From the sequence record PZ445526.1: a stretch of DNA of 64,000 nt, one strand, 5' to 3'. Positions within the stretch are counted from its first letter, which is position 1; the number at the start of each line of letters is the position of its first letter. This DNA is from a phage. A program made the position numbers and the translations under genes. A model generated the notes under the pieces. That model ran no database searches. It was given only the letters and a program-made list of their open reading frames with translations, and had not been told where the DNA came from. Positions 14,436 to 56,999 of the stretch are shown one piece after another.

Positions 14436-14752
14436 AAGTCCTCAACTTGAAAATCGTCTTTAAACAATCGGTTAACTATATGAGCTATTATATCACCATG
14501 ACACGGCTTTGGTTTACATGTGCATCCTAGCCTCATTCCACGTAAAGGCTCTAAATGTGCTTTAGTTATTTCTCCGGATTTAATTCGACGTATAAAATCT
14601 TTTTTGAATAATTCAATGGCAGCCTCCCGGCTGCCAGCATCTTTACCGACGTAATTTCCCCAAAATGTACCGCGGTGAATATTAACATCAAAGTCGGATT
14701 TGTATTTATTCACTACCCGGCATAGACGGCCCGGTTGGTAATAATTCTTCAT
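14426..14752 (-). CDS. Hypothetical protein, 108 aa
   Basis: ATG-initiated ORF between td and nrdA. Confidence 0.55.
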
Positions 14753-14969
14753 ATTGTTTTTCCGTTAAAACAGTAATATCGTAGTAACAGTCAGAAGAAG
14801 TTTTAACTGTGGAAATTTTATTATCAAAATACTCACGAGTCATTTTATGAGTATAGTATTTTTTACCATAAATGGTAATAGGCTGTTCTGGTCCTGGAAC
14901 TTCTAACTCACTTGGGTTAGGAAGTGTAAAAAGAACAACGCCAGAAGTATCTTTAAATCGTAAAATCAT
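14706..14969 (-). CDS. Hypothetical protein, about 87 aa
   Basis: Track ORF starts on TTG at 14981; in-frame ATG at 14969 with GAGGA upstream. Confidence 0.45.
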
Positions 14970-14989
14970 ATATCCTCGCAATAATAAAA

Positions 14990-15850
14990 TTACACCGCCA
15001 TCTTTCCTTTAATAGGAGGGTGTGATTCATAGTTGTTAAGAACGAAATCTTTAGGCCTAAGTTTAAGAACATATTTTAATTGTTCTTTAGTAGAAAGATA
15101 TCGGAATTTATAAGGTAGACCACTTATTACCAGCTCACAAAGCTCTTTAGGTTCACGCCTCAAAATTTCTTTACATTGTTCTACGTGATTCATATAGATA
15201 TGAGTATTACCACCAGAAAATATCAAATCTCCCGGAATAAGATTACACATCTTAGCTACAATATGAACTAACGTAGCATATGATGCAATATTAAATGGAA
15301 GACCGAGGAAAACATCTACCGAACGTTGATACCACTGCAAATCCAAATAGCCATTACGCACATTAAACTGATAGAACATATGACAAGGTGGTAATGCCAT
15401 CTGCTTAAGTTCTGCCGGATTCCACGCAGAAACAATTTGACGCCTATCATTTGGCAGTTTTTTAATACGATCAATAACTTCTATAATTTGGTCTACACCA
15501 CCAAAATCACGCCACTGTTTTCCATAAATTGGACCAAGTTCACCGCTATGGTATCCTAAATCTTTTGCTTGATTTTCGTAATTTTCATCCCAAACTGTTT
15601 TGCCTTGGATTAACGAATCATGTTGAATTAATCGCAAATCATTGACATTTGTGCTTCCCGATAAAAACCATATTAGCTCAGCAATGCAAGCTTTCCAGGC
15701 GAGCTTCTTAGTTGTTACCGCAGGAAAACCTTTGGTTAAATCCCAACGCAATTTAGTACCGAACAAAGCAATTGTTCCTGTGCCTGTTCGGTCATCGGTT
15801 TCATAACCATTTTCAAGGATGTTTTTAATTAAATCTTGGTATTGTTTCAT
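14990..15850 (-). CDS. td: Thymidylate synthase, uninterrupted, 286 aa
   Basis: Contains the thymidylate synthase PCH active-site motif ([12 protein letters not shown]); one continuous 286-codon ORF with no intron; ATG at 15850 preceded by AGGTG. Confidence 0.93.
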
Positions 15851-43160: not shown

Positions 43161-44976
43161 ACTGGCTCATCCATTCTTTACGAAGGTCAGCATTATCTCC
43201 CATGAGCATTTCAAAAAGCTCTTTCCAGTTCTCAGGAAGTTTAACAACATCATATACTGGATTTTGAATCATTTCACGATATTCAGATTTTTCCAAAGAG
43301 CCAAGTCCTTTAATATAACGGATGCTATGTTTAGGTAGAGCATCTTTGGCACTCTCATATTCAGCGACTGTATAAAACCATTCTTGTTTTTTACCGACCT
43401 GAGCGATGATTACAGGAGTTTTGACAAAGCGAATTCGTCCTTGCTCAAACAATTCTGGCCAATTACTAAAAAACCCGAGCAGAGAAGGATAAATGCTTCC
43501 TAGACCATCATGGTCAGCATCAGTCATAATAGCAATATTGCGATAATTCAAGTTTTCAGCTTTTTCACCAAGAACTAGACCAGTGATTGCGCAAATATCA
43601 AATAGTTCTTTGTTTTTAAGCATATCGGCATATGACATACCCCAGCTATTAAGAACTTTACCACGCAATGGATAACCACCATGAAGTTCTTTATCGCGAA
43701 CATCAATAAGATATCCGATAGCAGAATCACCCTCAGTCAAGAAAAGAGTAGTATCAGCATCTTTACCACAAAGGTTCGCTTTGATATGTTTATGAACCTT
43801 AGCTTTAGAAGCCTTTTTAGCTGCTTTAGTTTCAGCTGCTTTTTCTGCTGCCAATTTACGGGCCAAGGCAGCTTCAATAATTGGCATCAAAATAGCTTCA
43901 TTATTTAGAATAGCGCGTGAAATCTTTTTAGCATCAAGCTGAATATGACTACGAATTTCGCCAAATGGAGAAGTCAAACGCTCTTTAGTTTGAGAATCAA
44001 ATCGCATGTTTTTCATATCACGAACAAACATAACGATAGTCAAACATTCTTTAACACGTGCTTTAGTCACATCAATTTTGAACTTACGTTTGATTTGTGG
44101 AATAAGGTCTTCACAAATATCATCCATAACACAATCAATGTGATGGCCACCATTCTTAGTATGAATGTTATTGACGTACGTCAACTGACGAAAACCATCC
44201 GGTGAACGACCAACCGCAATAGAACAATTTTCTTGTTCTTGAACAATAGCATGTTCATCATACTGTCGTGCATATTTCTTAAAATTGCCCTGAACCTTTT
44301 TACCATTAAAGGTAAATTGAATATCAGGATAAACAACAGCAAGTGTCTGGAGACGATCTAGTGTAATGTCAAGATAAACTTGGGACAGCTCATTAGTTTC
44401 AAATGACATAAAATCAGGAATGAAAGTAACACGGGTTCCTTTCCATTTTCCAGGAATATCTTCCCATGATTTATTTTCCATGCCATTTGAACAACGAACT
44501 ACAATATTATTTTGACCATCACCAGTTTCACCAACAAACATCACAGAAAAAATGTTTGTCAAACTAGAACCAACACCATTCATACCGCCAGTGACGCGTT
44601 CTTTATCATCGCCGAAGTTACCACCTGCTTTTGGAATAGTCCAAGCAGCAACTGGACCAGGAATTTCTTCACCGGTAGGTGTTTTAACCATAGCCTGTGG
44701 AATACCACGACCGTTATCTTCAACTGTTACTTGATTGTTTTTAATAGTAACATTAATTTTATTTGCGAATTTAAACTTAGTACGAATACCTTCATCGACT
44801 GAGTTATCGATAATTTCATCAATAAGCTTAACAAGACCAGGTACATACTGAACACTTTCCCATTTACCAAACAGAAAGCGCTCATGCATTTCATTAGCAG
44901 AAGAGCCAATATACATGCCGCTACGCTTTTTGATATGTTCAATATCGCTCAGAATTTTAATTTCATTCTTAATCAT
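43159..44976 (-). CDS. 39: Topoisomerase II large ATPase subunit, single ORF covering the T4 gene 39 and gene 60 equivalents, 605 aa
   Basis: Begins MIKNEIKILSDIEHIKKRSGMYIGSS with GAGGA SD; one continuous ORF, no interruption. Confidence 0.93.
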   Translation of the reverse strand: MIKNEIKILSDIEHIKKRSGMYIGSSANEMHERFLFGKWESVQYVPGLVKLIDEIIDNSVDEGIRTKFKFANKINVTIKNNQVTVEDNGRGIPQAMVKTPTGEEIPGPVAAWTIPKAGGNFGDDKERVTGGMNGVGSSLTNIFSVMFVGETGDGQNNIVVRCSNGMENKSWEDIPGKWKGTRVTFIPDFMSFETNELSQVYLDITLDRLQTLAVVYPDIQFTFNGKKVQGNFKKYARQYDEHAIVQEQENCSIAVGRSPDGFRQLTYVNNIHTKNGGHHIDCVMDDICEDLIPQIKRKFKIDVTKARVKECLTIVMFVRDMKNMRFDSQTKERLTSPFGEIRSHIQLDAKKISRAILNNEAILMPIIEAALARKLAAEKAAETKAAKKASKAKVHKHIKANLCGKDADTTLFLTEGDSAIGYLIDVRDKELHGGYPLRGKVLNSWGMSYADMLKNKELFDICAITGLVLGEKAENLNYRNIAIMTDADHDGLGSIYPSLLGFFSNWPELFEQGRIRFVKTPVIIAQVGKKQEWFYTVAEYESAKDALPKHSIRYIKGLGSLEKSEYREMIQNPVYDVVKLPENWKELFEMLMGDNADLRKEWMSQ

Positions 44977-52001: not shown

Positions 52002-52126
52002 ATTTTTCTCACATCTTACGGACGGTTAACTACTTATACTATAACATTTTTACTTTAACTTTTGTAAACAACTTTATGTAAAAATGCTTTAAAAATTTCA
52101 TGGTATAATGAATCTAAGTCCTTCCA

Positions 52127-52729
52127 TTATAGATTAAATCCTTCAAAATCAAGAGTATAGATAGTGTATGTTGAATACTTTTTGTACTCATATCTATCTG
52201 CAATTCTAAATACACTTCCAGCTGGTATCATTACTTCTTGTTCATCTGAAACTAATTCCATATTACGATAACGATGGCTATCCGGAAACTTAAAGTTTGG
52301 ATTGTATTCTTTACAGCGTAGAGCTTTTATAGCATACTCCTGGAAATTGAATACCATAGGAGCTTTGAATTCAAAGATAACTTGTGTGTTATACTCTAAA
52401 CCGGAAGCAAAATGTAGAGCTATATTTTTATCATATGAAGCTGATACGACTTTATCAAATGTAATAATATCAATTCCTTGATTTAATACTTGTTTAGTCT
52501 CAGCTGGAACACCTCTCCAAAGAGGTTTATCGTTTGGAACCAAACGAGATTTGATTATTTCATTTAACCAAGAATGATCGTCTGGTTTATTAGTAATACA
52601 ATGAATTAAAAGTTCAATTTCAGATAAATTAAACCCTTCAGAAAGTAATTCTTCACGAATAGAAGCACGCACCGATGCATCCATTGATTTTATTTTAAAA
52701 TCTTTTAGTTGCATTACTGAGTATTTCAT
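52127..52729 (-). CDS. modA: ADP-ribosyltransferase ModA, 200 aa
   Basis: 200 aa with R-S-E type ART residues (WRGV..., SASYD, EQEVMIP); position and size match T4 ModA. Confidence 0.75.
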   Translation of the reverse strand: MKYSVMQLKDFKIKSMDASVRASIREELLSEGFNLSEIELLIHCITNKPDDHSWLNEIIKSRLVPNDKPLWRGVPAETKQVLNQGIDIITFDKVVSASYDKNIALHFASGLEYNTQVIFEFKAPMVFNFQEYAIKALRCKEYNPNFKFPDSHRYRNMELVSDEQEVMIPAGSVFRIADRYEYKKYSTYTIYTLDFEGFNL

Positions 52730-53349
52730 TCAACTACCTCAATATCATAAACTTTAAATGTTCCAAATGAATCGTGTAATTTTTCTTTTGAAATAGAAGT
52801 TATTCTATACTTTCCAATTGGAATCATCCATTCTTGTTCACGCACAATCATCATTAAGTTATCAGTACGCTCTGAATCTAGCCCATCAGTATCTTCATAC
52901 GTGTACTTAAACTCAGTATTAGGAGAAGAAAGTATAATATCGCTGATATGGTCAGAATAATTAAAAGCTTTATCAGTTTTTAAGCGAAATATTATTTCAG
53001 TGAAATATTCAGCATAAGAAAAAGAACACGCTGTATGCAAACTAGTAGTAAATGAATCTACCCTGTTCGTTGAAAACACTTCTCCAACTTGTAAATCTTT
53101 AATAAGTTCTTCTGTTGATTTTGATATACCACGATATAACTGATATGGTGATTTAGTTAAATGCTTTTTAATGATTTTATTCAATTGCCGATGAAGAGCT
53201 TCATTCTTTTTGGCTTCCATACATTGCCAAAGAATTGACTGTTCAAAGTCAGTAAATTTTTCACAGACCTTTTTATACATATCATATTGAAAATCAACGC
53301 TTTCAGCTTTTATAGATAACTGTTCAACATCTGCAGGATTAATAATCAT
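52726..53349 (-). CDS. modB: ADP-ribosyltransferase ModB, 207 aa
   Basis: 207 aa, paralogous ART motifs (QLYRGIS, EQEWMIP); tandem with modA. Confidence 0.75.
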   Translation of the reverse strand: MIINPADVEQLSIKAESVDFQYDMYKKVCEKFTDFEQSILWQCMEAKKNEALHRQLNKIIKKHLTKSPYQLYRGISKSTEELIKDLQVGEVFSTNRVDSFTTSLHTACSFSYAEYFTEIIFRLKTDKAFNYSDHISDIILSSPNTEFKYTYEDTDGLDSERTDNLMMIVREQEWMIPIGKYRITSISKEKLHDSFGTFKVYDIEVVE

Positions 53350-53416
53350 GATAGCCTCCGTATACTTCAGAAGCTATCATATCATCGTTAGAAAGGAAAG
53401 TAAACAACTTTTTGAA

Positions 53417-53599
53417 TTATTTTGCCCAGGGAGCCCAAGGCGGAGGGTCAAGATGGTATGAAGCTAGTTCTTCTAGAAGAGCATCTGGGGCTTCAATTCC
53501 ATAATTCTGTAATACTATACGGTACTCTTTCTTATAATCACTAGAATCATTCTGGTTATTCGTAGAATGATTATCTTCTAACATCTCAAATAAATCCAT
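53417..53599 (-). CDS. Hypothetical acidic protein, 60 aa
   Basis: ATG-initiated ORF. Confidence 0.45.
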   Translation of the reverse strand: MDLFEMLEDNHSTNNQNDSSDYKKEYRIVLQNYGIEAPDALLEELASYHLDPPPWAPWAK

Positions 53600-53607
53600 A
53601 TTAATTC

Positions 53608-54078
53608 CTAGCGATAAAAACCAAAGTGACGATTAGCTTCAACAATCTTTCTTTCTTCTTCGGACATTCTCCAGCGTAGTCCAACATCAAAATGAGCCCA
53701 GACCATCTTAACAAATGCGTTTATATCTTTAATATCTTCAATAATGAATGTTTTACTTTTAGAAGGTTGACTCGCTAATTTAACTTTATCATCTTCAAAC
53801 AGGTCAAAAAGACCATATTCATGAGCTCTTTTATAGCCTTTAATAGTTAAAGCTTCAGAAGAAGAAAACGGTGAATCAGTATTCTGCAAAATATCTTCAG
53901 TATGCTTTATAATTAGAATAACATTTTCTGGATATTTTCTTTCTTTTATATCTTTAATTAAAAAATCCGGATTTTCTGCTAAAGGAATAATCAATGAGCA
54001 ATTTTTATCAAGCGTATTTACTGATTTACCTTCTTTAGACATAAATTCTATTGAATAGTGTTTTGCTACTTCAATCAT
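53608..54078 (-). CDS. Hypothetical protein, 156 aa
   Basis: ATG-initiated ORF. Confidence 0.55.
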
Positions 54079-54235
54079 GTGATTTCCTTTTGCCTACTAA
54101 TGGACCGTCGGGAATTTTGTTTTCCTGGATATATTTCTCGTTTTCTTCCATCATTTTACTACCAATTTTAAGAAGCAAATCCATTGCTTCATTTGCTTTA
54201 GCTTTAGCCTCTTCTAACGTCATATCTTTGTTCAT
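54071..54235 (-). CDS. Hypothetical small protein, 54 aa
   Basis: Hand-translated [37 protein letters not shown]...; ATGA overlaps on both sides; not in the ORF track. Confidence 0.4.
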
Positions 54236-54435
54236 GATTTATCGCCATAGATGTCTCTCATCAATTTAAGCGCTGAGCGTTCTAATTTCTTTTCTTTCTC
54301 AGCACTAATCATTGATTTCATCCATTCTTCTGATTCATTCTGCATTTCTTTATTTGCTTGTTCAACCCAACCATCATCAATATACATTGAGTTTGGTCTA
54401 TTGAACCATTCAAGTATTTTCTTCAGAACTTTCAT
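54232..54435 (-). CDS. Hypothetical protein, 67 aa
   Basis: ATG-initiated ORF. Confidence 0.5.
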
Positions 54436-54895
54436 TTGTTTTACCTAAAACAATAGTAGGAGCATCGTCAAATTCATGAATTTTTAGCAATTTTGGATTT
54501 AAATTATTCCATACATAATAAATAAAGTATGATAAAGCATCTTCACTCGCAATTATAAATTTATTTCCTTCATTTATTTTCCAGTCATATACTGAATCGT
54601 ACGAATAAAAAGATAAAGGATTACCATTATATTGTTCTGCGCTAACATTAATGTATTCGGATTTAGTAAATGCTTCAATTGCTCTAAACGGACTATTTGG
54701 CACAGTTTCAATAATTCCGATCTTTTTAAGTTTTATTTCAACATCTTCTGGAACTGGCATTGAAACGAAATTTTCTACGAGATACATAGGGTTACAATAA
54801 CCCTTATCAATCACTACGGCTACAGTAATTGGAACATCTTTAGCAAACGACATGCTATTACTGCTAATATACATTTCAAACAAAATTGCTTCCAT
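54410..54895 (-). CDS. Hypothetical protein, about 161 aa
   Basis: ATG at 54895 preceded by GAGGAAAA (track start TTG at 54907). Confidence 0.55.
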
Positions 54896-54903
54896 AATTT
54901 TCC

Positions 54904-55236
54904 TCAATCACAAGATGTAGATGAACAGCTAGAATCACAAGAACTTCCACATGAATCGCCCGCCCATACATGAACAGGAACATTCGTATCATATGAATCA
55001 GAACTAGACTGTGTATTAGATGATGTAGTAGGTGTTGACCAGCGCCAAGGATTTTTATAATATTCTTGGGCTTCTTCATAAGTCATAGTAACTGCTTCTA
55101 CTGTTCCATCTCCCATATAAACATATTCAACTACAGTTAAAGGAAGATAGTCATTTGAAATAGGAACTACACCTTCCCCAGGAGTCGTAGAGAAAAAATC
55201 CGTAAAGAAACTTTTAAACCAATTAAAGATAAACAT
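54904..55236 (-). CDS. Hypothetical protein with Cys/Ser-rich C-terminal tail, 110 aa
   Basis: Hydrophobic N-terminus [11 protein letters not shown] and C-terminal ...[18 protein letters not shown]. Confidence 0.55.
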
Positions 55237-55442
55237 TACAAAAAGCCTCTCTTGAATTCGACTTGCTTCTCACCATAATCGTATCGAATTTCTGCATTAA
55301 ATTCAACAGAACCATCTGCGTACATCATAAATGAATGTACAATAACTTCTGTAGACCATGGCTGTAGTTCATATTTCTTCATTACATGCCGTGAAATGAT
55401 AATATCTAAATCTTCATTCGGTTTAATCCAACGATTTAACAT
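55236..55442 (-). CDS. Hypothetical protein, 68 aa
   Basis: ATG-initiated ORF. Confidence 0.5.
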   Translation of the reverse strand: MLNRWIKPNEDLDIIISRHVMKKYELQPWSTEVIVHSFMMYADGSVEFNAEIRYDYGEKQVEFKRGFL

Positions 55443-55507
55443 AGCGCTCTCCTCTATAAGATAATTCTATTATACCATACTCATTTTGATATGTAAACCG
55501 TTTAAAT

Positions 55508-55535
55508 GAAAAAAAAGGACTCCCGAAGGAGTCCT
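55508..55535 (-). terminator. Rho-independent terminator downstream of soc
   Basis: aggactcc-cgaa-ggagtcct hairpin (identical 20-mer to 2111..2130) with a U-run on the minus strand. Confidence 0.75.
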
Positions 55536-55540
55536 TGAAT

Positions 55541-55786
55541 TTATTCACCAGTTACTTTCCACAAATCTTCATTTGCAGTAATCCATTCAGTACGTTGATT
55601 TTCTTCATATACTGTAGAATATGCTGCTTTTTCTGAAGGGAATGTCTGGTAATGAGCACCAGAAATTTTGTGAACGTCAGAATAAAGAGGGAAAGCTACG
55701 GAAATTTCCTTTCCTTCAATTTTCTTATTTCCATCTAATTTCTGCTCAAATGTTTTGATATTAACATAACCGCGAGTACTAGCCAT
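55541..55786 (-). CDS. soc: Small outer capsid protein Soc, 81 aa
   Basis: 81-aa product MASTRGYVNIKTFEQKLDGNKKIEGKEISVAFPLY... recognised as T4 Soc. Confidence 0.92.
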   Translation of the reverse strand: MASTRGYVNIKTFEQKLDGNKKIEGKEISVAFPLYSDVHKISGAHYQTFPSEKAAYSTVYEENQRTEWITANEDLWKVTGE

Positions 55787-55802
55787 GTAATTCTCCTTTT
55801 AT

Positions 55803-56012
55803 TTAAATTACATGATTATTTATAATAAATTCTCGCGGAACGTTAAAATACCCAATTTTAGTTAATATAACAACATCGCCGTTAATAATTACCGGAGAAT
55901 AATCGGCTGGAGCATTAAATTTCCAATGGGCTCTAATATTATATCCATCAGAACCAAATGCTCGACTAGCCGGTCTCCCGGCTTTTTGCCATGCATAAAA
56001 ATCAAATTTCAT
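55803..56012 (-). CDS. Hypothetical protein, 69 aa
   Basis: ATG-initiated ORF between soc and 56. Confidence 0.5.
   Translation of the reverse strand: MKFDFYAWQKAGRPASRAFGSDGYNIRAHWKFNAPADYSPVIINGDVVILTKIGYFNVPREFIINNHVI
55817..55824 (-). promoter_or_regulatory. Late promoter box TATAAATA upstream of soc
   Basis: Plus-strand tatttata about 30 nt upstream of the soc ATG. Confidence 0.55.
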
Positions 56013-56209
56013 TTTGAATGCTCTATAATTAATTTTAAAGCTTCTTCACGCACCAACTTGCCTGGTATATGCCCAGTTTTAATTGTGTAAACTTTGTGGA
56101 GCTGATTAGATAAGAGCTCACATACGAGCTCCTTGTCATAATCTTTAAATAGCTGGTCAATACGCTTCTTGTGGGCTTTCTTGAGCTGGCGTTTATTTAA
56201 ACGAGCCAT
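56009..56209 (-). CDS. Hypothetical basic protein, 66 aa
   Basis: ATG overlaps the gene 56 stop. Confidence 0.5.
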   Translation of the reverse strand: MARLNKRQLKKAHKKRIDQLFKDYDKELVCELLSNQLHKVYTIKTGHIPGKLVREEALKLIIEHSK

Positions 56210-56798: not shown

Positions 56799-56999
56799 AT
56801 GGTACAAAAATTAATGGCACTTGTTAATGCCATCAAAGGTAATAAAAAGCGTATAGCTTTTACTATTTCTGCTATGGTAGGAATTTTACTCTGGAACTTT
56901 ATTTTATCACCTGTTGCAATTGCACATGGTATTAATATTCCAGTAGTTACTCTTGATACATTCGTAGATTTAGCATTTGCTTTAGTTGGGTTAATTTAA
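56799..56999 (+). CDS. Small hydrophobic protein, 66 aa, on the opposite strand to its neighbours
   Basis: AAGGAGG 4 nt upstream of the ATG; TATAAATA-like sequence upstream; 4-nt 3' overlap with gene 61. Confidence 0.45.
   Translation: MVQKLMALVNAIKGNKKRIAFTISAMVGILLWNFILSPVAIAHGINIPVVTLDTFVDLAFALVGLI

Follow-up and report, generated by a model that had tools for sequence, protein, structure and literature searches.

A conserved cysteine-aspartate signature at the C-terminus of Mrh.1, a DUF7206 protein of T4-like phages

The open reading frame at positions 54904..55236 (-) of the 64,000-nucleotide stretch of phage DNA that was analysed here (sequence record PZ445526.1, "the window") is almost certainly the orthologue of T4 mrh.1, a protein-coding early gene which belongs to the DUF7206 family and is restricted to T4-like phages. 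The most constrained element of its product is a disordered piece at the C-terminal end, which is kept precisely aligned to the free C-terminus, and the pattern of its conservation across the family indicates that this tail is a genuine, selected, functional-looking feature. A possible reading, put forward tentatively on the strength of sequence patterns, is that the tail may be a leash-mounted chelating or docking end piece for a metal ion or a host metalloprotein.

T4 is the best-studied virulent phage, and mrh.1 is one of approximately one hundred T4 early genes that are without a known function. The gene itself is already known from the T4 genome annotation, UniProt (P20706) and Pfam, and membership of DUF7206 gives it a name without explaining what it does. 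What is gained here is not a new gene: an anonymous hypothetical protein acquires a defined architecture and a sharp, testable signature, which spans T4-like phages of Escherichia, Shigella, Yersinia, Salmonella and Enterobacter, and which is useful because it singles out the exact residues to mutate. Should the tail turn out to dock through a metal or through thiols, a phage protein would be engaging its host target in a new way, and the srh/mrh heat-shock module, which is poorly understood, might become easier to explain; otherwise mrh.1 is one more conserved accessory ORF. Neither "mrh.1" nor "DUF7206" occurs in the main text of the searchable literature, in which no description of the tail signature was found either.

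Identity and distribution of the gene

The window is Tequatrovirus DNA. The 2.3 kb surrounding the ORF are approximately 97% identical to Yersinia phage phiD1 and to phage T6, and this 2.3-kb region has matches in 592 phage records. The mrh.1 coding sequence (54904..55236 (-)) is a genuine protein-coding gene which, in the ORF list and its translation, comprises 110 codons from ATG to TGA, with the stop at 54904-54906. Its product matches the Pfam family DUF7206 (PF23836) with an E-value of 2.4e-27 and a score of 96.1 bits, compared to a cutoff of 25.6, in a full-length alignment that places residues 3-110 on positions 1-107 of the 107 positions in the profile, and it also matches PHROG 2031 (phrog_2031, function unknown) with an E-value of 1.1e-33. 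The family motifs K-x-x-F, P-G-x-G-x-x-P, E-Y-x-Y-x-G-D-G-x-x-E-E-V and S-C-D-S...C-D are all present in the window protein, which keeps every residue that is invariant or nearly so in the alignments of 15 and of 117 sequences.

The window protein is about 96% identical to T4 Mrh.1 (UniProt P20706, GenBank AAD42613.1), and the two share their position relative to mrh.2 and mrh, the start/stop overlap with mrh.2 and an identical 20-residue tail. They differ in length, at 110 residues in the window and 113 in T4, and the main difference between them is an in-frame 9-bp deletion that removes one AAYACNCAG (Asn-Thr-Gln) unit, of which the spacer described below contains one copy in the window and two in T4. 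The annotation "mrh.1" stands between mrh.2 and mrh both in Shfl2 and in T4 (AAD42613.1).

The first-pass annotation had held that its interpretation would fail if the region were non-coding or frame-shifted in closely related genomes. This is not what the relatives show: the frame is intact in at least 480 of the 502 phage records in which the protein was found by tblastn, these 480 containing at least 80% of its length, and the indels in the linker are in-frame. The tblastn alignments end at residue 92, as a result of the masking of the low-complexity tail by BLAST. Frame-shifted or truncated copies are few and isolated (P0006 in phage ERS-1 and P0004 in Sa45lw).

A word-indexed search with the single protein recovered only Tequatrovirus clusters together with one relative of 60% identity, and an exhaustive HMMER profile search recovered 19 representatives. 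When a profile was built from the distant matches, 148 proteins were obtained, all of which are assigned to DUF7206 and none of which carries a functional name. The long contigs (about 160-175 kb) and the named sources among these relatives are T4-like phages (JS98, IME08, CJ20, and Enterobacter, Salmonella and Yersinia phages), many of the 148 lying on contigs that are too short for classification. The diversity of the family described here is drawn from protein databases and not from IMG/VR, which yielded six loci only, all of them Tequatrovirus. One apparent relative (P0043, 1152 aa, with eight matching stretches) was rejected as a spurious repeat translation.

Genomic context and expression

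The locus is arranged in the order soc terminator, early promoter, mrh.2, mrh.1 and mrh, followed by srh and the Mod ADP-ribosyltransferases. The gene order in the window is the same as that in Shfl2 and T4, with mrh.1 downstream of soc and mrh.2, upstream of mrh, and on the early-gene strand. A strong intrinsic terminator after soc (55515..55536 (-)), which has a 9-bp stem with five GC pairs followed by a T run, separates the late soc transcript from the mrh.2-mrh.1-mrh unit. A near-consensus sigma-70 promoter of the T4 early type (55469..55497 (-); TTTACA-17-TATAAT with an extended TG) lies 5' of mrh.2, and was detected in a promoter scan with 11 of 12 matches plus the TG (sequence GTTTACA...TGGTATAAT).

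A Shine-Dalgarno sequence is located between this promoter and mrh.2, the upstream partner gene (55236..55442 (-), 68 aa, identified from the ORF list and from the annotation of Shfl2 and T4). The TAA stop of mrh.2 overlaps the ATG of mrh.1 (TAATG), an overlap which suggests that the two genes are translationally coupled. On the other side, the Shine-Dalgarno sequence of mrh overlaps the stop of mrh.1 (GAT TGA GGA AAA TT ATG); mrh occupies 54410..54895 (-), encodes 161 aa from the ATG at 54895, and is identified both by a match to Pfam T4_MRH (E 5.6e-42) and by the T4 annotation. Because the terminator precedes the promoter, the TAATG overlap joins the first two genes and the mrh.1 stop lies within the Shine-Dalgarno sequence of mrh, the mrh.2-mrh.1-mrh unit reads as a single early operon.

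The arrangement extends to divergent members of the family. In four divergent loci (L009, L010, L012 and L013) the order is soc, a small ORF, DUF7206, MRH, Y01E and a Mod ADP-ribosyltransferase, with the variations that the MRH slot of L012 is filled by a same-sized ORF without a Pfam match and that L009 has two additional small ORFs before an MRH gene pair; L011 has no recognisable neighbours. If Tequatrovirus is counted as one lineage, the start/stop overlap with the upstream ORF is retained in 5 of the 6 lineages, and in 4 of the 6 an Mrh.2-like protein can be recognised in the upstream ORF. No conserved Cys or His was found in the Mrh.2-like or Mrh proteins, which rules out a metal site shared with the operon partners. 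Among the genes called within about 5 kb, no maturase-type gene was found in the window or in the five divergent loci.

In the T4 data of the PMC9697503 supplement, the mrh.1 RNA is classed as "early" with no protein class given, and the mrh.2, mrh and srh proteins are quantified by proteomics whereas Mrh.1 is not. Since the predicted tryptic peptides of Mrh.1 are 8, 53, 4 and 45-48 residues in length, its absence from the proteomics is expected and uninformative. The interval of the T4 map defined by the Delta12 deletion (map units 16,280-3,778) is dispensable (PMC6070864), and T4 mrh.1 (14,685-15,026) falls inside it; mrh.1 is therefore non-essential in the laboratory, and any role that it plays must consequently be conditional.

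Architecture of the protein

The structure predicted by AlphaFold2 from the 117-sequence alignment has a mean pLDDT of 60 and is confident in the core only, and the prediction from a 5-sequence alignment is poor (pLDDT 46). The folded core comprises residues 34-66 (55039..55137 (-), pLDDT 75-85), in which a beta-hairpin with a GDG turn is followed by a helix; in detail, strands are predicted at residues 34-40 and 46-52 and helices at 53-61 and 63-66. The consensus of the core is E-Y-[VI]-Y-[MV]-G-D-G-[MT]-[MV]-E-E-V, and residues E37, Y40, G42, D43, G44 and E47 are invariant or nearly so. The core is preceded by a P-G-E-G-[VM]-[VI]-P-[IV]-S motif at residues 19-27 (55156..55182 (-)), in which P19 and P25 are near-invariant among 117 sequences. 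It is followed by a disordered Ser/Thr-rich spacer at residues 67-90 (54967..55038 (-), pLDDT below 50), the length of which is widely variable across the family, the 164-aa variants having 54 extra residues. Residues 70-110, which include the tail, have pLDDT values below 50 and are predicted to be disordered.

A Foldseek comparison with the PDB found nothing (best E 1.9), and a comparison with the BFVD viral models returned family members only. A sequence-profile search of the PDB gave nothing significant, and NCBIfam and PADLOC gave no meaningful matches. Homology and structure prediction, which the first-pass annotation had named as checks, connect the protein to DUF7206 and T4 Mrh.1 and provide a small predicted core, but offer no fold or sequence analogue outside the family.

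Residues 3-15 (55192..55230 (-)) are predicted to form an aromatic amphipathic helix, with the family consensus M-I-x-W-L-K-N-L-F-K and an AlphaFold2 pLDDT of about 71. The N-terminal pattern in the alignments is M-[FI]-x-W-[LI]-K-x-[LF]-F, and K8 and F11 are invariant or near-invariant. The N-terminus had been described at first as hydrophobic, and it is indeed aromatic and amphipathic, but it falls below transmembrane grade: the best 19-residue Kyte-Doolittle mean is 0.84, and the N-terminal segment contains Lys8 and Asp13. On the basis of this hydropathy, an integral membrane or secreted protein was rejected.

The short terminal targeting helices of MinD, FtsA and MreB resemble the N-terminal helix of Mrh.1 in having a hydrophobic or aromatic face and a polar face that bears Lys. 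Their computed muH values are 0.45-0.58, compared to a median of 0.63 for the DUF7206 family, but the T4-type Mrh.1 helix is less cationic than these helices and is not exceptional among the ORFs of the window. The muH of the window protein is 0.41-0.51, and this degree of amphipathicity, which is equalled or exceeded by 22% of the window ORFs, is not unusual, an observation that weakens the case for a tether in the window protein itself. The predicted N-terminal helix is a candidate tether that could attach the protein to a membrane or to a partner, and it may instead pack on the core.

Composition and conservation of the tail

The C-terminal end of the product quoted in the first-pass annotation matches the translation of the ORF, but the count of five Cys that accompanied it must be corrected, since the translation gives exactly four (residues 96, 100, 104 and 109). 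All of the Cys of the protein lie in the tail, with the spacing CX3CX3CX4C; they amount to 4 in 110 residues (3.6%) in a protein that is very acidic, with a net charge of -11.

The frequency with which such a cluster is produced by composition alone was estimated by shuffling the residues of a crude 100-ORF window proteome (Cys frequency 1.18%) in 2000 shuffles. At least four Cys per 16 residues were found anywhere in 262 of the 2000 shuffles (13%) and at a C-terminus in 9 of the 2000 (0.45%), and the Cys cluster of the single sequence is therefore only moderately unusual when composition alone is considered. The case for the reality of the tail, as judged from sequence, is made by its conservation and not by the composition of the cluster. 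One other ORF in the window reaches such a Cys density (43681-43908 (+)), and it is spurious, lying antisense within the gp39 topoisomerase gene. The initial impression that the tail is unusual among neighbouring ORFs can be extended, since no other real gene of the window encodes a tail of this kind.

The conserved tail consists of residues 91-110 (54907..54966 (-)), in which S99-C100-D101-S102 and C109-D110 are found family-wide and C96 and C104 are specific to Tequatrovirus. Among the 117 full-length members of the family, the C-terminal end is -CD in 115 and -CN in 2, which places Cys at position -2 and Asp or Asn at position -1 in every member. The pattern SC[DG][ST].{2,8}C[DN]$ is matched by 114 of the 117, and the last two Cys are separated by a distance of 5-11 residues. 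Since exactly two Cys are present in 106 of the 117 members, the four-Cys tail is a Tequatrovirus elaboration, with only C100 and C109 being universal; C96 stands in the column of a Tyr that is conserved in the family. The family tail can be described more generally as an aromatic-x-G-[DS]-[SD] element and (S)-Y-D-S-G repeats, ending in S-C-D-S-x(2-8)-C-D-COOH. Conservation in related phages, which had been suggested as a means of evaluating the tail, therefore supports it: the ORF is intact and S-C-D-S...C-D is kept family-wide, the two additional Cys being specific to Tequatrovirus.

The tail is near-invariant in about 35 distinct Tequatrovirus variants, and its core motif is retained in relatives of just 30-45% identity. 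From lineage to lineage the tail codons show synonymous turnover, with exchanges between TCN and AGY for Ser, TGT and TGC for Cys, and GAT and GAC for Asp, and the DNA 3' of the mrh.1 stop is unrelated between lineages, L009 having a different downstream gene. When Tequatrovirus members are compared with the window, 1-4 synonymous and 0-1 non-synonymous differences are found over the 25 codons of the tail. Because the codons turn over synonymously and the downstream DNA is unrelated, selection acts on the protein sequence of the tail and not on the DNA.

Possible functions of the tail

In the mechanism that is proposed here, the end piece S-C-D-S-x(2-8)-C-D-COOH would be the working part of Mrh.1. 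It would present two thiolates flanked by Asp carboxylates, with one of the thiolates a single residue from the free C-terminal carboxylate, and these thiolates and carboxylates together could create a flexible site that chelates a soft or borderline metal such as Zn2+, Fe2+ or an Fe-S cluster, or Cu+. Two Cys per chain cannot alone complete a tetrahedral thiolate site. Since there are two Cys per chain and none are conserved in the operon partners, a complete metal site would need a second Mrh.1 chain or a host protein, and the likeliest target would be a metal that one of these, in the latter case a host metalloprotein, already holds. The tail would plug this target or form a bridge to it, and the spacer would serve as a leash running from an N-terminal anchor on a membrane or a partner. 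In Tequatrovirus the valency would be raised by the two additional Cys, one of which replaces the family Tyr. Biologically, Mrh.1 would contribute to conditional host takeover and not to an essential function.

The register of the conserved residues with the C-terminus in 117 of 117 members, the predicted disorder of the tail and the freely varying length of the spacer are features that fit an end piece. The 5-11-residue spacing of the Cys is unlike that of structural zinc sites, which have CxxC pairs, and counts against a metal. No similarity to a metal-binding family was found in Pfam, in NCBIfam, in the PDB or by fold.

The Rad50 zinc hook and the CD4-Lck zinc clasp are inter-chain sites to which each partner contributes two Cys. 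Mrh.1 is like them in having two conserved Cys per chain, which would fit inter-chain bridging, but those sites are structured and have CxxC or a fixed short spacing, whereas the Cys of Mrh.1 are 5-11 residues apart in a tail that is predicted to be disordered. A zinc ribbon or zinc finger was rejected on the grounds that there is no CxxC, that the tail has a pLDDT below 50 and that nothing matches in the PDB or by fold. Mrh.1 lacks at least one defining feature of each of four groups: metallothioneins, zinc ribbons, RiPP precursors and integral membrane proteins.

A more far-reaching form of the proposal, which must be considered doubtful, is that DUF7206 may be an unrecognised class of host-takeover effectors, in which the active element would be, in place of a folded domain, a leash-mounted C-terminal -S-C-D-COOH "warhead" that enters the metal site of a host protein. 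A chemical parallel for such a warhead exists in thiol-carboxylate inhibitors of zinc enzymes. FtsH, a membrane zinc protease which degrades sigma-32, is a conceivable target, although this choice is pure speculation; it is suggested by the sigma-32-related neighbouring genes srh and mrh, by the possibly membrane-binding N-terminus of Mrh.1 and by the analogy of lambda CIII.

The fixed C-terminal register, which is found in 117 of 117 members, could also be produced by a short linear motif anchored by the carboxylate, in which the disordered tail is a peptide ligand or degron that is read through the free C-terminus without any metal. The host or phage protein that reads it might be a protease or an adaptor, or carry a peptide-binding domain, and Cys and Asp would act as recognition side chains. 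The predicted disorder of the tail agrees with this interpretation, as does the variable length of the spacer, which would be accommodated in the same manner as for a leash. The internal S-C-D-S copy is not explained by recognition of the end alone, however, and Cys is unusual as a pure recognition residue; to our knowledge, there is no nameable C-terminal recognition system that reads -S-C-D-COOH. A metal-free motif of this kind is on balance rather unlikely.

An unlikely interpretation is that the tail is redox-active, with the two conserved Cys closing an intramolecular disulfide loop or engaging in mixed disulfides. The tail would then be a thiol-disulfide switch, or else a trap for, or a substrate of, host or phage proteins of the thioredoxin or glutaredoxin type. 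The presence of exactly two Cys in 106 of the 117 members, 5-11 residues apart in a flexible Gly/Ser-rich segment that could close a loop, is what would be expected of such a tail. A protein without a signal peptide or transmembrane segment should reside in the reducing cytoplasm, however, and Tequatrovirus has four Cys. Carboxylates near thiols raise their pKa, and the flanking carboxylates of the tail would be expected to have this effect and to make the thiols poor redox nucleophiles.

The first-pass annotation had offered a heavily modified tail as an alternative to a metal-binding one, and this is disfavoured by the absence of a maturase-type gene near the six lineages and by the lack of a match to models of RiPP precursors. 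In the specific form of this alternative, Mrh.1 would be a RiPP precursor with a conserved N-terminal leader and a C-terminal core whose Cys, Ser and Thr residues are turned into thiazole/oxazole or thioether cross-links, either as in TOMM peptides of the microcin B17 type or as in SCIFF/ranthipeptides. The resemblance is a superficial one: like the SCIFF/ranthipeptide and TOMM precursors, Mrh.1 is a small protein with a C-terminus rich in Cys, Ser and Thr (and in Asp), with CX3C-type spacing in the T4-type tail of Tequatrovirus, and an A/T/S-G pair stands before the tail. Double-glycine-type leader cleavage sites resemble this pair. Against this, none of the six lineages has a YcaO, cyclodehydratase, radical-SAM or other enzyme gene next to the DUF7206 gene, the neighbours being small conserved ORFs, MRH and Mod. 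No NCBIfam precursor model, such as those of the SCIFF, NHLP or Nif11 leader families, is matched at E<=10 by the window protein or by two divergent relatives, and the only Pfam match of the window protein is DUF7206. There are two Cys only across the family, and conservation is highest in the core and lowest in the middle, whereas typical RiPP precursors show the reverse; the conserved tail and variable middle likewise set Mrh.1 apart from the SCIFF/ranthipeptide and TOMM families. A RiPP precursor is therefore very improbable.

It is likewise highly improbable that the tail sequesters or stores metal in bulk in the manner of a metallothionein, which would be the metal-binding idea of the first-pass annotation taken at its most literal. 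A disordered tail rich in Cys, Asp and Ser in a protein of net charge -11 is suggestive of such a role, and the (predicted) disordered C-terminal tail that combines thiols with carboxylates is a point of likeness to metallothioneins and to E. coli SlyD, which has a metal-binding C-terminal tail. The Cys count is very low by comparison, however, at four here and two in 106 of the 117 relatives, so that a chain could hold about one ion at most. CxC, CxxC and CC motifs are absent, as is His, and no metallothionein family is matched in Pfam (E<=1) or NCBIfam (E<=10).

The proposition that the tail has no protein-level function, being either a chance low-complexity run, for which the 13% chance from composition alone of such a cluster somewhere in the window could be cited, or a DNA or RNA element such as the ribosome-binding site of mrh, whose Shine-Dalgarno sequence is overlapped by the last codon and stop of mrh.1 in Tequatrovirus, is effectively refuted by the counts for the tail and the turnover of its codons, the motif being kept at 30-45% identity through TCN/AGY switches of Ser and alongside unrelated downstream sequence, and the changes in the tail within Tequatrovirus being mostly synonymous.

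Length variation in Mrh.1

In a cluster of 164-aa Mrh.1 variants (P0003), found in Shigella phages Sf24/Sf22, Yersinia phage fPS-90 and Escherichia phage 235Ecol030PP, 54 extra residues are inserted after approximately residue 86 of the window protein (about window position 54979), and this added sequence is non-random. The start of the insertion, YASDDTMEEIIRQPE, is aligned by BLASTP with the family core motif YMGDGMMEEVIRPHE and the linker of distant members of the family (E = 3e-11 against P0047 and 1e-9 against P0045), and since the alignment covers both of these elements, core and linker are each present twice in the long variants, the additional copy being degenerate. Comparison of the sequences suggests that this copy arose either through partial duplication or through recombination between diverged alleles. 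The tail of the long variants is unaltered.

Length also varies on a smaller scale within the spacer, in the region of window positions 55005-55013, where a 9-bp unit, AAYACNCAG, encodes Asn-Thr-Gln. The unit is present once in the window, twice in T4 and three times in the family member P0024, and the reading frame of mrh.1 is kept in every one of these versions.

Rare variants of the tail

The internal tail motif is reversed, with D-C in place of C-D, in the rare variants P0090 (Escherichia phage vB_EcoM_ESCO47; tail …SGDSCSSSSDCSSSSGSCD) and P0120 (tail …SSDCGVSSPSCD), both of which retain the terminal C-D. Four cysteines are present also in P0090, which is a member not of the Tequatrovirus type.

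The mrh.1-mrh junction and neighbouring genes

The end of mrh.1 overlaps the translation signals of the gene that follows it: at window positions 54896-54909 (GAT TGA GGA AAA TT ATG), the Shine-Dalgarno sequence of mrh contains the mrh.1 stop codon. The mechanical ORF list lengthens mrh to a TTG at 54907, but it is the ATG at 54895 that is the equivalent of the annotated T4 start.

The homing endonuclease gene segF is absent from the window, where soc.1 and soc.2 (55803-56209; DUF7422 and phrog_5782) stand between gene 56 and soc, whereas in T4 this place is occupied by segF (T4 locus L002, 247-921). Between genes 56 and 61, on the opposite strand, lies a 66-aa ORF (56799-56999, +) that has long hydrophobic stretches (…IAFTISAMVGILLWNFILSPVAIAHG…) and may encode a small membrane protein; its counterpart in Shfl2, Shfl2p035, is annotated as hypothetical.

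In the divergent T4-like contig L010, which also encodes an Mrh.1 relative present in Enterobacter phage Entb_45, a 504-aa ORF (L010 3224-4738) adjoins an ordinary soc gene. The ORF has Pfam matches to Soc and also to GDSL lipase, and its product may combine a capsid-decoration protein with an esterase or lipase in a single fusion.

Labels in public records

Several labels in the public records of related phages that cover window positions 52100-56200 are misleading. The T6 RefSeq record (NC_054907) and phage BW-1 label mrh.1 as “prohead assembly scaffold protein”, and AP018814 carries misleading terminase and scaffold labels throughout this early region. In several records, ORFs of this region are labelled “molybdenum ABC transporter”; these are presumably the modA/modB ADP-ribosyltransferase genes, mislabelled through a confusion of gene names. 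The Tequatrovirus-like record PV654520.1 (H76), which holds mrh.1 at 87% identity, is labelled “Pseudomonas phage vB_PSGBLB0006” with P. aeruginosa as host, a host label that is unexpected for a Tequatrovirus.
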